From positions 96,001 through 160,000 of the IMG/VR virus record IMGVR_UViG_3300031555_003590: 64,000 nucleotides of DNA; one strand, written 5' to 3'. The notes beneath the pieces are model-generated. The model ran no database searches. It saw only the letters and a program-made list of their open reading frames with translations, and was not told the origin of the DNA. Positions 4,617-44,793 of the stretch are shown piece after piece. Both the position numbers and the translations under genes were made by a program. Source of the DNA: a virus (lineage: Duplodnaviria > Caudoviricetes). Position 1 is the stretch's first letter. Every line of letters begins with the position of its first letter.

Positions 4617-6683
4617 GTGATTTTAAATATGGGCTTTAAACAAAATTATGTAGATGCTGCTGTCATGACTATTATGAAAGTACATCCTGAATATAATAAA
4701 GAAGATGTAAAACAAATTATATCTAGAATAGTAAAAGAAAGAATGACTGATCCATCTATTTTAATGGATAATAATGTTACTGGTGAAAGTCATAATACAA
4801 ATCTTACGTATTTATGCAATTGGATTGATAAAAGAAATCCAGTAGTATCAGGTAATGCAACATTCTATTGTCAACCATCTGAACTATTATCACCAACATC
4901 AAATATGTTACGATCTCTAAAAGTTGGTCGTAAACAAGTTAAAAAACAAATGTTCAAATATGCTCCAGATTCAGATGAATATGCTCAATTAGATTTAGAT
5001 CAAATGAATAAGAAAGTTATTATGAATGCTGAATATGGTGGATCAGGTACTCCTACTGCAGCATTTTATACTAAATATTCACCTGCTGCTACAACTCTAA
5101 TGTCACAAAGTATTATTACTACAATGGCTGCTTTCTTTGAATCATTTGTTGGTGATAATCAAAAATTCTTTAGTATTGATGAATGTTTAGATTGGATGAA
5201 TACTATTATCAATAAAAAGAAAGATAAAGTAGCTAAATGGATTAGAATTCCAACTGAATATGAAGTATCTCATAGGATTAAACTTCATTTCTATATGGCT
5301 AATAAAGATAATTTTGATATAATTGATAAATACATCCATAAATGCAGTGATAGTGAAAGAGCATATTTATATTATACAAATAATATGAAATCATTTATTA
5401 CTGATCACCCTAAAGTATCTAAACTAATTAATGATATTTTAACAATTCTTCCATTATTAGAAGCTAGTGAAAAAGAAGTACCTGATCAATATAAAGATAA
5501 ATTTGGATTAGAAGAATATAATAAGTGGGTTGCAAAAGAGATGTTCTTAGATCCATATAATGTTCCAGATTCAATAAAAAATATAATTACCGATTTAGTA
5601 GATTTAGTACACCAGTATGTATATGTAGAATATTTAACTCCAGATAGCATTGTTAAACTTAATAATCATATGAGAAATACAGTATTATTAGTTGATACAG
5701 ATTCAAATGTTATTAATTCAGATTTGTTTGTTTCATTTGTATTAGATAGTGTATTTCCTGGTAGCACATTTAATAGATCTCGTCTATATAATGAAATGAT
5801 TCTTACTAATGTATTGGCTACAATGTTAGATAAATGTGTAAAAAATACATTAGACTATTATGGAAGATGTCATAATATGGATGAAGCATCAAGAGCTGAA
5901 CTTACGATGAAAAATGAATTTATGTTTAGAAGATTCTTCTTGATGTTAACAAAGAAAAGATATGCAGCTTCTATTGTATTAAGAGAAGGAAATATGATGC
6001 TTCCATTCAAATTAGAAATTAAAGGAATGGATTTTATCAAAGCAGGTGTTACTGATGATGTAACTAGTAAGTTTACTAATATGCTTAAAAATCATATTCT
6101 ATTTGCTGAAGAACCTCAACTTCACAATATGATGAAAGAAATTAAACAATTTGAAAAAGAAATTTATAATGATCTAAGAAATGGTGGAACTAAATATCTC
6201 AAGAGTTCTCAATATAAACCTGCAGAAGGATATTCTAAAATTAAAGATGCTAATGGTAAAGTTATTGGTAGTAAAGCATGGTCACTACCAGTATTTAGAG
6301 GTTCTGAAATATGGAATATATTATACCCTGATAAACAAATAAATTCATTAGATAGAGTAAGTATTGTAAAGCTTACAATAACTAATATAAAGGATCTAGA
6401 TAAAATCAAAGATCAATTTCCAGATGACTATAATAATGTAATTACTAAGATATATGGATCTAATAATCCTAATATTATAAATGCTGGAATGAAAGTTATT
6501 TGTATTCCTAATACAGTATATCAGATTCCAGATTGGATAATTCCATTCATTGATTATGATGTAATTATTTCTGATGTAATTTCATCATTTAGATCTGTAC
6601 TAGATTCTTTAAAATTAGAAGGTATGGCATTTAAAACTCCTAATGGAAAAGCTAATATCACATCATGTTTAATTAGTTTATAA
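4617..6683 (+). CDS. polB: Divergent family B DNA polymerase, polymerase subunit (phiKZ-like split PolB)
   Basis: KKVIMNAEYGG (motif B), LLVDTDS (motif C), KKRYA, EIKGMDFIK. No exonuclease domain or DxxSLYPS motif seen, consistent with a split enzyme. Confidence 0.8.
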   Translation: MILNMGFKQNYVDAAVMTIMKVHPEYNKEDVKQIISRIVKERMTDPSILMDNNVTGESHNTNLTYLCNWIDKRNPVVSGNATFYCQPSELLSPTSNMLRSLKVGRKQVKKQMFKYAPDSDEYAQLDLDQMNKKVIMNAEYGGSGTPTAAFYTKYSPAATTLMSQSIITTMAAFFESFVGDNQKFFSIDECLDWMNTIINKKKDKVAKWIRIPTEYEVSHRIKLHFYMANKDNFDIIDKYIHKCSDSERAYLYYTNNMKSFITDHPKVSKLINDILTILPLLEASEKEVPDQYKDKFGLEEYNKWVAKEMFLDPYNVPDSIKNIITDLVDLVHQYVYVEYLTPDSIVKLNNHMRNTVLLVDTDSNVINSDLFVSFVLDSVFPGSTFNRSRLYNEMILTNVLATMLDKCVKNTLDYYGRCHNMDEASRAELTMKNEFMFRRFFLMLTKKRYAASIVLREGNMMLPFKLEIKGMDFIKAGVTDDVTSKFTNMLKNHILFAEEPQLHNMMKEIKQFEKEIYNDLRNGGTKYLKSSQYKPAEGYSKIKDANGKVIGSKAWSLPVFRGSEIWNILYPDKQINSLDRVSIVKLTITNIKDLDKIKDQFPDDYNNVITKIYGSNNPNIINAGMKVICIPNTVYQIPDWIIPFIDYDVIISDVISSFRSVLDSLKLEGMAFKTPNGKANITSCLISL

Positions 6684-18530: not shown

Positions 18531-19058
18531 ATGAAAACCAACAAGATCTACATCACTAGTGCCGGAGGAAATTTTGGTTGCACTGAGCCCATTTATCAGG
18601 CAATGCCAGATTTCATTCTCCATGTAAACGACAAGTCGTGGATGTTTAATACCGACAAAGATGGTAACCTCACGATGCTTTGTATCAATGGTAAGGATGC
18701 TGACTTTGGAGTGATTAAAGGATATAAGGCCATTACCCTTAAAGCTGTATCTTCTGATTATGACGATTATGAAAAAAGTCGTCATAATTATGAAGAAAGT
18801 ATCAAAGAGTGCAAAGGTCGTTGTTCTTGTCTTGCTGGTACGCTTTCCATTGAGGGTCTCAATACTGGAACCATAATTGGTATTATACCCATAACTGAGA
18901 GAGATCTTGAAAGGAGGGAAATGGATAATGATGATTGGGATTGTCCTTTTGCTGTAACTGGATCCCTTTTGTATGATCCCTTCTGTCTGTGTACTGGTGG
19001 AAAATTCACGATGGAAAACTTCTCTACGAAGCTTGATTCATGTCCTTTCCACCAGTGA
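18531..19058 (+). CDS. Cys-rich hypothetical early protein
   Basis: GAAAGGAAGG before ATG 18531; terminator follows. Confidence 0.55.
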   Translation: MKTNKIYITSAGGNFGCTEPIYQAMPDFILHVNDKSWMFNTDKDGNLTMLCINGKDADFGVIKGYKAITLKAVSSDYDDYEKSRHNYEESIKECKGRCSCLAGTLSIEGLNTGTIIGIIPITERDLERREMDNDDWDCPFAVTGSLLYDPFCLCTGGKFTMENFSTKLDSCPFHQ

Positions 19059-40254: not shown

Positions 40255-41217
40255 ATGAATATTTCAGATATAATTAAAGAAGCTTTTATGTCTAAATCAA
40301 TGATTGATTATTTATGTAATAATATTGAAAACATTTCAAATGATCAATTAGTTGATATTATTAATGCATCAACATCTATTTCTCTTCAACGTAAATTAGA
40401 ATTACTTGAATGGCTTTCTCAGTTTAAAGATATTGATAATAATATTATATTAAGTATCAATGCTTCGTTGGATGCATTATATGATAAAAATACAAATATT
40501 ATCTTTATACTTGATACATATGTTTGGAATGATGAATTTAAAGATTCTATACTAGATAGCTCTATTCCATTTCTAAATTACGAAAAAGCTATTGAATATA
40601 TTAAAACGGATTGTAATGATGAAATGTATAAAGATATTCGATTTTGGTATATTCTTGAAAAATGGGAGCGGGATGACAATGGAAATTTAATTGATACATG
40701 GTCATATGTATTAATAAATGATAAAGTCATTTTCGCGTATAAACCACAAGATTCTCAATATATAAATATAGATCCTAATAAAATTGGTCTAAATCTATCA
40801 ATTCCATTTAATAGTGGTGATATCATTGAAGTATCAAGTATGCCATTTAATTCTAAGAAATATGCGTTAATAATTGATATTGGAGATAATGTTGATTGTT
40901 GTTCTGTTCAACATGTATATGTTGAAGATAATTTATTAAATATAAATGCTTTGAAACATGGCCATATATTTAATGAAGAATTATATGCATCATCTCCGTT
41001 ATTTAGTATTGAACGATATAATGGTGAATTAAATAAACATGATAAAGTTTTATTAATTATTAAAGATTATATTATCAATCATCCTGAAATAGATACATGT
41101 TCCGATTTATGGCAAGCTTTACATGATATCTCTAATAATATGATTGCATGTATTGATATTACAGAAGAACTTATCGATGAATATGTAAGAGAAGTTTTAT
41201 TGAAGAAGGATAAATGA
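40255..41217 (+). CDS. Hypothetical protein
   Basis: 320 aa, directly upstream of rtcB. Confidence 0.55.
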   Translation: MNISDIIKEAFMSKSMIDYLCNNIENISNDQLVDIINASTSISLQRKLELLEWLSQFKDIDNNIILSINASLDALYDKNTNIIFILDTYVWNDEFKDSILDSSIPFLNYEKAIEYIKTDCNDEMYKDIRFWYILEKWERDDNGNLIDTWSYVLINDKVIFAYKPQDSQYINIDPNKIGLNLSIPFNSGDIIEVSSMPFNSKKYALIIDIGDNVDCCSVQHVYVEDNLLNINALKHGHIFNEELYASSPLFSIERYNGELNKHDKVLLIIKDYIINHPEIDTCSDLWQALHDISNNMIACIDITEELIDEYVREVLLKKDK

Positions 41218-41285: not shown

Positions 41286-42410
41286 ATGATTACATTAGAT
41301 TGCAAATATAATCAAATTAAAGTATTTGCTGATGAAATTGAATTAGGTGCTGAAAATCAACTTAGAGCTATGTGTGAGCAACCTTTTATGAAAGGTAGTA
41401 AAATTAGAATTATGCCTGATGTGCATCCTGGTAAAGGATCTGTTGTTGGAACTACTATGACAATTAATGATTATGTAATTCCATATGTTACTGGGTCAGA
41501 TTCAAGTTGTGGATTACTAACAGTACAATTGAAGGAGAAAAGAATTAATCTTCCTGAACTTGATAGTTTCATTCGTCAAAATATTCCTCATGGTAGAGAT
41601 GTTCGAGATCGCCCTCATAGAAGTCATGGTAGAATTGATTTATCTGAATTAAAATGTTATAAGAAAATTGATACCAGAAGAGCTAAAGAAAGTTTAGGAA
41701 CATTAGGAGGGGGAAATCATTTTATTGAAATTGATAAAGATGATGAAGAAAATTTATATTTAGTAATTCATACTGGAAGTAGAAATATGGGTTTAAGAGT
41801 TTCGGATTTTTATCAAAATAAAGCATATAATTCTATTGGAGGTAAGAAACAAATTGAAATTCCATATGAATTAGCTCCACTAACTGGTCAAAATATGCAA
41901 GATTATTTAGCTGATATGGAATTTATGAATAGATTTGCTACTCTAAATAGAAGAATTATCAAAGAAGTAATTCTAGATGGTATGAAACTTCATGAAGTAG
42001 ATTCATTTGAAACTATTCATAACTATATCGATGTTGAAAATATGATTCTACGTAAAGGTGCAGTGTCAGCTAAAGCTGGTGAGAGATTAATTATTCCAAT
42101 GAATATGCACGATGGTAGTTTAATTTGTACTGGTCTTGGTAATGAAGATTGGAATTATTCTGCTCCTCATGGTGCTGGTCGTTTATATAGTAGAAAGGAA
42201 TCTGAAAATCATTTTACTCTATCAGAATTTAAGAAAGAAATGGAAGGAATCTTTACAACTTCAGTTACACAAGATACTTTAGATGAGTCTCCAATGGTAT
42301 ATAAACCAATGGAAAGTATTCTCAGAAATATTGATGAAACTGTAAAAGTTGAAAAGATTATTCGACCAATTTACAATTTTAAAGCTAGTGAACATGTTAA
42401 ACGTAAATAG
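41286..42410 (+). CDS. rtcB: RtcB family RNA ligase
   Basis: MPDVHPGKG, DSSCG, GTLGGGNHFIE, IHTGSR, HNY, RKGA, HGAGR, DESPMVYK. Confidence 0.95.
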   Translation: MITLDCKYNQIKVFADEIELGAENQLRAMCEQPFMKGSKIRIMPDVHPGKGSVVGTTMTINDYVIPYVTGSDSSCGLLTVQLKEKRINLPELDSFIRQNIPHGRDVRDRPHRSHGRIDLSELKCYKKIDTRRAKESLGTLGGGNHFIEIDKDDEENLYLVIHTGSRNMGLRVSDFYQNKAYNSIGGKKQIEIPYELAPLTGQNMQDYLADMEFMNRFATLNRRIIKEVILDGMKLHEVDSFETIHNYIDVENMILRKGAVSAKAGERLIIPMNMHDGSLICTGLGNEDWNYSAPHGAGRLYSRKESENHFTLSEFKKEMEGIFTTSVTQDTLDESPMVYKPMESILRNIDETVKVEKIIRPIYNFKASEHVKRK

Positions 42411-42421
42411 GAGAAAGGAAA

Positions 42422-43009
42422 ATGATCTATCAAATCAGTTCCGGCCAAGGACCTGCCGAGTGCGAGCTTGGCGTGGCTAAGTTCCTTGGCTATCTGCAAA
42501 ATCACTATGAGATTACCGTGCTGGACTACTCAAGCGGATATCATCCGGATACATACCGCTCGGTGCGCTTCTCTACACCGGACGATCTGAGCGGCTATAT
42601 CGGTTCTGTCCAATGGGTCTGGCAAAGCAGCTACCGTCCCGGGCACAAGCGCAAAAACTGGTTTCTGGATTTCAGCGAGTGTTCATCCGTTATTCCGGAA
42701 ACCTTTGACGAAAGGCAGATCACCTTTGAAACCTTTCGCTCCGGCGGCAAAGGCGGCCAGAACGTCAACAAGGTCGAAACCGGAGTACGCGCAATCTATG
42801 CCTCGACTGGGCTGAGTTCTGTCTGCACCGAGGAACGCAGTCAATTTCAAAACAAGCAGCGTGCCATCGAAAAGCTGAGAGCCGCGATCAAGCTGGAAAA
42901 TGAGCAGCGCAAGGCACAGAACACAAATGATACATGGAAACGCCATACACAAATTGTACGTGGTGAAGCTAATAATAAATTTTATGGTATTGATTTTAAA
43001 ATACAATAA
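42422..43009 (+). CDS. prfH: Peptide chain release factor H
   Basis: QISSGQGPAECE, HKRKNWF, RSGGKGGQNVNK, EERSQFQNK; directly after rtcB. Confidence 0.92.
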   Translation: MIYQISSGQGPAECELGVAKFLGYLQNHYEITVLDYSSGYHPDTYRSVRFSTPDDLSGYIGSVQWVWQSSYRPGHKRKNWFLDFSECSSVIPETFDERQITFETFRSGGKGGQNVNKVETGVRAIYASTGLSSVCTEERSQFQNKQRAIEKLRAAIKLENEQRKAQNTNDTWKRHTQIVRGEANNKFYGIDFKIQ

Positions 43010-43151
43010 TAAATTTATTATTATCATTAACTAAATAATACGATCTTTCTTCCAATAATAGTATAGTATCAAAAAATAAATATATATTATTATAGTAGGA
43101 ATTAAAAGATAAATATTTAATATTTCTTATAGAAAGGAGGAAGGATCAATT

Positions 43152-43532
43152 ATGCTTATCGAATTCCTAAATCAAGTTACAGTTGATAAAGTTCCATTGG
43201 TTGAAAATATTAGATTAAATATTCAACCATTGTCTCATCAACTGCGATTGAAAGCAATCTATCTAAATGGTGAAAATAAAACACCAGTAGATTTTGTTGT
43301 ATTCAATTGGACACCTAAGCTAGATAAGCTTCAATTGGCCATTTTGATATATGGCAAAGAATTAACCACAGGCACAGAATTTCATTGTAAGTTATCATAT
43401 GATATATTCCGAAAACATATGAAGCTTAGTGGAAGGATTGCTGGCAAAGATGTTAAAATAACAATTGCTAGCATGAAAGAGTTTCTAGAAATTCCTAGAT
43501 ATATCACAAATCAATTTTATGGAGGTATGTAA
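43152..43532 (+). CDS. Hypothetical early protein
   Basis: Promoter motif at 43081; AAGGAGG RBS. Confidence 0.55.
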   Translation: MLIEFLNQVTVDKVPLVENIRLNIQPLSHQLRLKAIYLNGENKTPVDFVVFNWTPKLDKLQLAILIYGKELTTGTEFHCKLSYDIFRKHMKLSGRIAGKDVKITIASMKEFLEIPRYITNQFYGGM

Positions 43533-43534
43533 AA

Positions 43535-44230
43535 ATGTCTAAGTTCACCAAAGAAAGAATCGCAGAGATCGATACTATGATTAGTAAAACCATTCCCCAG
43601 GCTATGACTAAAGGTTGCACTCTGGAAGAGTACCATGAACATCGAGTTACCTTGACTCTTACTGTGATTCAGGCACTCTTTGGCGCGGATTATATTAAGC
43701 CTAAGAAAGAAGGGAAGCCCCTCATTGCAAAATTAAAGCATAAGATTGCTGATCGTGAAGACGTTAATACCATCACTCGTATGATTGATGAATTCGTTGG
43801 TACAGTTGAAGTTCCTTATCTGAATAGCATTTCAGGAAATACTAATGCTGATGATGATATGGATATTCCTGCTACCACAACTCCGGTTGTTTCTAGACTT
43901 CCCAAACTTGATAAGATCAATAGTAAGAGCCTGAGTGAATATCTCTTTGGACCTTCTGGAGTTAGCAAGATTCTTATCAGTGGTCTTGATGTAATTGAAC
44001 TTGCAGCTGTTGCTGAAAAAGTCAAAAAGATCAATACTCGCAACAATATGATTCTTATTGGTTCTGCTGTACTTATTGGTGTTGGTATCGGTGTTGGCAT
44101 CAACATGTACAGAAAGTCTAAGAATGATGATATCGATGTCGATAACATTGATGTTGATGATGTCGAAGTTGACGTTGATGACGTTGAAGTTGATGTTGAT
44201 GATGTACCTGTAGTAAATCTTGATGAATAA
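43535..44230 (+). CDS. Membrane-anchored protein with acidic repeat tail
   Basis: Hydrophobic ILIGSAVLIGVGIGVGI then DIDVDNIDVDDVEVDVDDVEVDVDD. Confidence 0.6.
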   Translation: MSKFTKERIAEIDTMISKTIPQAMTKGCTLEEYHEHRVTLTLTVIQALFGADYIKPKKEGKPLIAKLKHKIADREDVNTITRMIDEFVGTVEVPYLNSISGNTNADDDMDIPATTTPVVSRLPKLDKINSKSLSEYLFGPSGVSKILISGLDVIELAAVAEKVKKINTRNNMILIGSAVLIGVGIGVGINMYRKSKNDDIDVDNIDVDDVEVDVDDVEVDVDDVPVVNLDE

Positions 44231-44334: not shown

Positions 44335-44793
44335 ATGGAAAATTATCTAAAACTAGGTATTGGATATGATACTACATTTGAATTAAATGAATTTAATGAA
44401 CCTAGAATTAGAAGTGAAATTGAATTAATTAAAGATGTAATTCTTTTTATATTATTTGCTAAACCTGGACAATATCCATCACTTCCACATATTGGATTAG
44501 ATTTACAAGGTATGTTATATTCATTTTATGATGAAATAAATGAAAATGATTTAAAATTTAAAATTAAAGAGCAATGTGAAGCAATGGGAGTATTTTTTAG
44601 TGATGGTACAGTACAAATTAAAAAAATTAAATATAGAAGTCAGCCATCATTATTAATTTCTATTTCAGGAACAGAATCATATCCAGATGGATATATGAAA
44701 GATCATATTGGTGTATCAAATGAATATTTAATTGGTATTACATACGATGAACTGAATAATATGATCTATAATATTAATAGTGGAGGAGGTTAA
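44335..44793 (+). CDS. Baseplate wedge protein, T4 gp25-like
   Basis: IKDVILFILFAKPGQYPSLPHIGLDL matches the gp25/GpW pattern. Confidence 0.6.
   Translation: MENYLKLGIGYDTTFELNEFNEPRIRSEIELIKDVILFILFAKPGQYPSLPHIGLDLQGMLYSFYDEINENDLKFKIKEQCEAMGVFFSDGTVQIKKIKYRSQPSLLISISGTESYPDGYMKDHIGVSNEYLIGITYDELNNMIYNINSGGG

Follow-up and report, generated by a model that had tools for sequence, protein, structure and literature searches.

A mosaic prfH gene with a GC-rich body and an AT-rich 3' end in the rtcB-prfH pair of a very AT-rich gut phage

Introduction

In Escherichia coli ATCC 25922, RtcB2 and PrfH are encoded by a ribosome rescue-and-repair operon, in which PrfH frees the ribosomes stalled by a cut in the 16S rRNA and RtcB reseals the cut (PMC9304027, PMC9223846). 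The ribosome-recognition domain of the E. coli PrfH is made of residues 2-98 and 180-204 (PMC9304027). In jumbo phages, RtcB is a known, less common RNA-repair ligase (PMC7824862). Most of the phage RtcBs fetched in the present work are without a prfH neighbour. Mosaic genes and compositional islands are textbook features of phage genomes, and the intragenic mosaicism of tail-fibre tips is an instance of modular phage evolution.

Here, we analysed an rtcB-prfH pair carried by a very AT-rich gut phage of 292 kb (genome GC 28.3%). The window, i.e. the whole stretch of 64,000 nucleotides under study, covers positions 96001-160000 of an IMG/VR virus record of 292,119 bp, the completeness of which is rated at 100%. 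An earlier note on this DNA had proposed that the prfH of the phage was recently overwritten by recombination with a host allele. The locus comprises the following features, in window coordinates.

41286..42410, + strand: rtcB, 374-aa RNA ligase (PF01139, 198.8 bits; GC3 0.12, GC at codon positions 1+2 0.39)
42411..42421, + strand: AT-rich, purine-rich 11-nt spacer with the prfH ribosome-binding site (read from the sequence)
42422..43009, + strand: prfH, 195 aa, intact mosaic ORF with a GGQ motif (PF00472, 79 bits; TIGR03072, 164.1 bits)
42425..42943, + strand: GC-rich, presumably foreign segment, codons 2-174 (GC 0.52, GC3 0.61; +149 nats)
42422..42444, + strand: putative 5' crossover zone, invariant N-terminal motif MIYQISSGQGP (23 nt identical to the prfH start of metagenome locus L135)
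42935..42957, + strand: putative 3' crossover zone, conserved motif WKRHTQI (contains the last donor-type codon, CGC; locus L127 matches 22/23 nt)
42944..43009, + strand: phage-like 3' tail, presumably resident, codons 175-195 and stop (GC3 = 0; conserved PrfH C-terminus)

Results

Identification of PrfH and RtcB

The prfH gene lies directly downstream of rtcB, on the same strand and after a gap of 11 nt. The GGQ motif of its product occupies residues 111-113 and is invariant in the family alignment (A1). The score against PF00472 is above the cut-off of 35 bits, and the TIGR03072 score is just below the equivalog cut-off (166.65 bits), which the bacterial relatives straddle (158.7 bits for P0004 and 170.2 bits for P0092, the latter bearing the NCBI name PrfH). 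The whole length of the phage protein could be aligned with the solved PrfH chains, residues 2-193 with 9mor_A (E 5e-34) and 2-192 with 7sa4_8 (E 2e-30), whereas the RF1 and RF2 chains match it at residues ~85-190 only. Its N- and C-terminal segments thereby correspond to the ribosome-recognition domain of PrfH and not to domain 2 of RF1/RF2.

On TIGR03073, the model of the PrfH-associated RtcB2, the phage RtcB scores 101.9 bits, below the cut-off of 271.8 bits, and the RtcBs of the Clostridia operons likewise stay below it (100-106 bits). Judged by these profiles, the phage protein is an RtcB-family ligase (PF01139) of a type other than the proteobacterial RtcB2. By homology with the E. coli system, PrfH would free the peptide from ribosomes in which the 16S rRNA is cleaved at the decoding centre and RtcB would then reseal the rRNA, so that the pair may act against RNA-cleaving host defences.

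Base composition of prfH and limits of the GC-rich segment

Among the 214 ORFs (mean GC3 0.138, SD 0.063), prfH displays the highest GC3, 0.546, whereas the value of the adjacent rtcB is 0.12. The description of prfH in the earlier note as a sharp GC-rich island beside a phage-like rtcB was confirmed, and the hand counts given there (32/60, 34/60 and 15/60 GC in the lines at 42421, 42721 and 41701) were reproduced exactly. Genome-wide, the mean GC of 500-nt intervals is 0.283 (SD 0.041); that of prfH reaches 0.53, about 6 SD above the mean, and is the second highest in 292 kb, the highest being at genome positions 4676-5175. Intervals of 519 nt with at least 50% GC occur in two regions of the genome only, prfH and a tail-fibre tip. 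The third GC peak is due to a cluster outside the window (G000:C1:45219-47239, all on the minus strand) that comprises every tRNA gene of the genome (Lys-UUU, Gln-UUG, Asn-GUU and Met-CAU).

In 120-nt intervals, the GC content is 0.28 at 42320-42439, 0.45-0.56 over 42380-42979, and 0.22, then 0.15, past 42920. A two-boundary likelihood fit of the base composition placed the island at 42441-42919, with a GC of 0.54 inside and 0.29 outside. Its limits were defined by codon log-odds, in which the synonymous-codon use of the phage (about 200 ORFs) is opposed to the usage in the closest bacterial rtcB-prfH operons. In prfH, the donor-like segment with the highest score extends over codons 2-174 (42425-42943) and amounts to +149 nats, compared with a median of 4 and a 95th percentile of 13 nats in the other phage ORFs; rtcB sums to -130 nats and is devoid of any donor-like stretch. 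The last donor-type codon of prfH is the CGC at 42941-42943 and all later codons are phage-type. The final 21 codons all end in A or T (sum -8.8 nats), 20 of them favouring the phage usage and one (CGT) being neutral at +0.09. The GC3 of the same 21 codons is 0.24-0.43 in relatives, and the most lenient estimate for the probability of 21 A/T-ending codons in a run is about 6e-4 or less. The island begins at the second codon and ends within the gene, as first described, but its foreign part stops ~20 nt before position 42965, where its end had been placed.

The first two codon positions were also compared: their GC is 0.48 in the prfH body versus 0.44-0.50 in its relatives, and 0.39 in rtcB versus 0.43-0.48 in its own. 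The body of prfH shows no drift toward the composition of the phage, while rtcB is fully recast to it.

Around prfH, neither flanking direct repeats nor mobility genes were seen, and promoter and terminator scans gave no excess. An inverted repeat with perfectly matched 13-nt arms, made of A and T only, and a loop of 28 nt (42970-42982 / 43011-43023) spans the prfH stop codon; the AT-rich tail could partly double as a hairpin, possibly by chance in such AT-rich DNA. Two orphan genes downstream of prfH, 43152-43532 and 43535-44230, have a mildly raised GC3 (0.23 and 0.31, respectively). The first 60 codons of the second one have a GC3 of 0.40-0.47, and its end encodes an acidic repeat of the (V/I)D(V/D)D type. 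Neither gene belongs to a Pfam family or has a homologue in any fetched rtcB-prfH operon, and the graft as defined here leaves both out.

Position of the junctions and proposed origin of the mosaic

At the 5' junction, the first 23 nt of the phage prfH are identical to the start of prfH in locus L135. The ribosome-binding site and the spacer that precede the ATG are phage-like, whereas in the closest bacterial operons the two genes overlap by 4 nt. Beyond the 3' junction, the 21-residue tail fits the family consensus HTQI.RG.A..KF.G.DF in both alignment A1 and the solved PrfH chains. Both junctions fall on the most conserved motifs of the gene, as would be expected from homology-guided recombination between diverged alleles.

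We consider it probable that a GC-rich allele from the same Clostridia-type clade has overwritten codons 2-174 of a resident, AT-adapted phage prfH, because the AT-rich tail still encodes the conserved PrfH C-terminus and the junctions lie on invariant motifs, and because rtcB is phage-like at the three codon positions while the prfH body is not, the nearest relatives of the two genes being also different. We infer the following course of events. The phage would already have carried an rtcB-prfH pair that was AT-rich, in adaptation to the 28% GC of its genome. During infection, a homologous prfH of ~52% GC, from a Clostridia-type rtcB-prfH operon located on the chromosome, a prophage or another mobile element of the same cell, would have recombined with the resident gene, with one crossover in the first ~20 nt of prfH and the other in the stretch coding for WKRHTQI. 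Codons 2-174 would have been replaced, the phage ribosome-binding site, the last 21 codons and rtcB being left untouched; the product is an intact PrfH. The postulated resident gene is represented by these 21 codons only, since no sister phage with an AT-rich allele throughout was found.

Relatives of PrfH and RtcB

Hundreds of PrfH relatives with 65-84% identity were found in gut-type metagenomes, one of them named Clostridia bacterium PrfH. At the protein level, none of 5.8 billion clusters gave a match above 84% identity, and the best prfH relatives are 69-72% identical at the DNA level. In the collections searched, no near-identical donor was detected, and the bacterial match that had been expected to name the host did not appear, the best DNA identity being 72%. 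The DNA search of plasmids gave no prfH match. In deposited phages, DNA searches yielded a single match, 63 nt long, in the RF1 gene of a Mycobacterium phage, and protein searches at most 38% identity. The best identity in GTDB species genomes is 63% among the matches listed. The cluster names among the relatives include 'Clostridia bacterium' and 'Anaerotruncus colihominis'. Since the donor was not found, 'recent' is a reading of composition; it holds only in a relative sense, the prfH body being undrifted and rtcB fully drifted.

The RtcB relatives reach 81% identity, including one of Anaerotruncus colihominis at 79%, so that both phage proteins are ~80% identical to GC-rich bacterial proteins. 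The nearest RtcBs (78-81% identical) have a GC3 of 0.57-0.70 and come from Oscillospiraceae-type mobile elements; the three nearest relatives that were examined are without a prfH neighbour. Three Anaerotruncus rtcB copies (L131-L133) adjoin Mu-type transposase genes and L130 adjoins DUF932 and YqaJ genes. The contexts of four Clostridia-type rtcB-prfH pairs (L004, L126, L127 and L214) contain genes for dynamin-like or AIG1 GTPases, PDDEXK nuclease, HipA, WYL, serpin and HTH proteins, and by this gene content look like defence islands or mobile elements.

The nearest PrfHs (80-84% identity) have as partner an RtcB of 367 aa, which shares only 52% identity with that of the phage, and the operons with a 377-aa RtcB (73-74% identical) carry a PrfH at 72-76% identity. 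In the RtcB tree, the phage protein belongs to a clade (99% SH-aLRT) of RtcBs that, as far as their contexts were checked, lack a prfH neighbour, and this clade stands well apart from the 367-aa RtcBs. In the PrfH tree, which is shallow and poorly resolved, it is sister to the PrfHs partnered with 367-aa RtcBs (88/88 support); a second tree neither recovered nor rejected this grouping (AU p = 0.37). Forcing the phage PrfH with the partners of 377-aa RtcBs was rejected (AU p = 0.0008), a test made uninformative by the fact that these sequences themselves form no clade. With PrfH placed with moderate support only, the discordance of the trees would point to separate origins of rtcB and prfH, for which the composition is the stronger argument. 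Among the PrfHs of one tight clade, the partner RtcBs are of two types, only 52-54% identical to each other, and RtcB partners may have been swapped in bacteria too.

Sister phages were sought through the flanking genes 43535-44230 and 40255-41217, through RtcB alone and through an RtcB alignment, and none was found; the same phage searches returned neither an AT-rich RtcB of this clade nor a prfH of the tight clade.

The events could have taken place in the reverse order, a complete GC-rich prfH being captured beside a partnerless rtcB and its 3' end being later converted by the AT-rich prfH of a co-infecting related phage. An rtcB-only ancestral phage would be compatible with the nearest relatives of the phage RtcB, which lack a prfH neighbour. 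However, two events are then required, the phage gene pool must still have contained an AT-rich allele from this clade, and the phage-like ribosome-binding site and spacer, with a 5' junction exactly at the conserved gene start, argue against it. This order of events is unlikely.

Other GC-rich grafts in the genome and meaning of the GC-rich codons

Outside the window, a tail-fibre gene of 536 aa (Phage_fiber_rpt; G000:C1:4610-6220, i.e. L218:1111-2721, minus strand) contains a sharp in-frame GC-rich graft: its GC3 is 0.0-0.17 over residues 1-360, 0.5-0.8 over residues 361-510 and 0.19 in the last 26 codons. The sole relative of this fibre tip (54% identity) is on a contig of 48.5% GC with tail, holin and amidase genes (L219). 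A fibre-like gene of 602 aa (G000:C1:7874-9682, i.e. L218:4375-6183, minus strand, also outside the window) has two GC-rich patches, at residues about 271-360 and 450-602, the rest of the gene being AT-rich. Its product has an internal duplication (NPNLL.NWYF occurs twice) and no Pfam match, and the search of the fibre region against Rfam found nothing. The third-position bases of the fibre-tip graft (A.18, C.37, G.28, T.17) resemble those of the prfH island (A.17, C.38, G.24, T.21) and are opposite to those of rtcB. The prfH and fibre grafts therefore indicate a recurrent uptake of gene segments by the phage from a pool of ~50% GC. Two small ORFs without a Pfam family also have a raised GC3, G000:C1:75249-75677 (minus, 142 aa; 0.46) and window 18531-19058 (plus, 175 aa; 0.36, with 0.4 or more in the first 80 codons); they may be further imports.

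The relation between the two genes of a pair was examined in 67 other adjacent rtcB-prfH pairs of bacteria and phages. In these, the GC3 of prfH minus that of rtcB has a mean of -0.01 (SD 0.053, range -0.17 to +0.11), while it is +0.43 in the present phage (z = 8.3). The proposed comparison with sister phages could be made only with more distant AT-rich phages (L012, L014 and L015/L016), whose prfH GC3 of 0.10-0.16 is in line with their own rtcB. One of them, the L015/L016 phage (288 kb, 28% GC), and its relatives were considered as sister phages and discarded, their proteins being only 33-39% identical and the locus non-syntenic; they serve as a composition control only.

These data bear on the possibility that the GC-rich codons are not foreign and have been kept by selection within the phage, for expression timing, an expression limit or an RNA structure. 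Nothing speaks directly for it, apart from an 11-nt imperfect inverted repeat at 42444-42490. Against it, amelioration is lacking at codon positions 1+2 too, the compositional shift is sharply bounded within the ORF, the other AT-rich phages keep an AT-rich prfH, and the unrelated fibre-tip graft shares the third-position base use. We judge selection on codons highly improbable as the cause of the island.

Recurrence of the junctions in separate assemblies

The phage PrfH protein was found on five contigs, two of them over 200 kb and three short ones from different assemblies or samples (JGI 3300024268, JGI 3300018495 and ENA ERZ27248446). The contigs of the two JGI samples match the window at 100% identity through both junctions, L002 over 2775 nt and L003 over 2194 nt, and the ENA contig bears the same rtcB-prfH pair. 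An assembly artefact, in which bacterial prfH reads would have been joined into the phage contig through short shared k-mers, can be imagined, the ~23-nt stretches at both junctions being identical or nearly identical to bacterial alleles and thus able to bridge a small-k assembly graph. Such a chimera is nevertheless very unlikely, verging on negligible, because both junctions recur in separate assemblies and the reading frame is preserved, as are the conserved residues; moreover, no template is known for it, bacterial DNA identity being at most 72%. The two short JGI contigs end within 3 nt of each other, at about 44528-44531 of the window, inside ORF 44335-44793, an indication that this point is repeated or varies between strains in the source samples.

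A further reading, in which the phage never had a resident prfH and a truncated foreign copy, inserted illegitimately, became joined to phage sequence by chance, is neither helped nor excluded by the lack of visible flanking repeats and mobility genes, and is effectively refuted by the tail, since chance cannot yield 21 residues that fit both the family consensus and the solved PrfH chains.

Discussion

The overwriting of a resident prfH is the part of the initial proposal that is upheld by the tail, the junctions and the composition. Its other part, the host origin of the incoming allele, is not supported by the present data, since no near-identical sequence was detected in the collections searched and the close relatives often lie in prophage-like or mobile contexts: they adjoin a Mor-like gene, a transposase gene, or PDDEXK, dynamin-like GTPase and HTH genes. 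The donor may have been the host chromosome; judging from these neighbourhoods, it was with at least equal probability a prophage or some other mobile element of that cell. A host of 50-55% GC, as had been suggested, is no more than consistent with the prfH and fibre-tip grafts; it would recall the case of other very AT-rich gut phages, which have far GC-richer hosts.

That the swap served to match the ribosome of the host is speculation. In an adaptive version of this idea, the ribosome-recognition part of PrfH would turn over in giant phages as tail-fibre tips do, either to fit the rRNA and S12 of a new host or to evade a host factor that prevents the phage from rescuing ribosomes after an rRNA-cleaving defence has cut them. 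We hold this to be distinctly unlikely; if it were true, accessory translation-repair genes would be determinants of host range.

With the overwriting of a resident prfH as the preferred reading, a compositionally extreme large phage would exchange gene segments, those of an accessory ribosome-rescue gene as much as those of receptor-binding tips, with a much GC-richer pool. The shared composition of the grafts, which points to Clostridia-type sources, gives a clue to the ecological partners of the phage, a host of ~50% GC or its prophages. In addition, the junctions on conserved motifs illustrate how an allele could be replaced via short homology between copies that are only ~70% identical.

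Comparison with known systems

The phage module resembles the E. coli RtcB2-PrfH operon by its gene order, rtcB then prfH, and by a short PrfH with a GGQ motif and without a stop-codon reading domain. With an end-anchored offset, the presumed resident tail corresponds to the C-terminal piece of the E. coli ribosome-recognition domain. It differs from this operon in that it is phage-borne, that its RtcB belongs to another subfamily and that its two genes have different compositions and, apparently, different origins. The jumbo-phage review that covers RtcB (PMC7824862) makes no mention of PrfH, whereas the rtcB described here is paired with prfH.

The Clostridia-type operons of gut and rumen metagenomes (L004, L124, L126, L136, L214 and L216) encode PrfHs that are 72-84% identical to that of the phage, of the same length and with the same N-terminal motif and C-terminus. 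Unlike the phage genes, their rtcB and prfH have a 4-nt overlap and do not differ in composition.

A parallel in form is the mosaicism of tail-fibre tips, where a foreign segment also lies within a gene, with sharp in-frame junctions and a conserved anchor that is kept; here, the phage gene concerned encodes an accessory translation-rescue factor and not a receptor-binding protein. The prfH mosaic is a clean new example, in an unusual gene, of a known phenomenon, and leaves the understanding of phage evolution unchanged.
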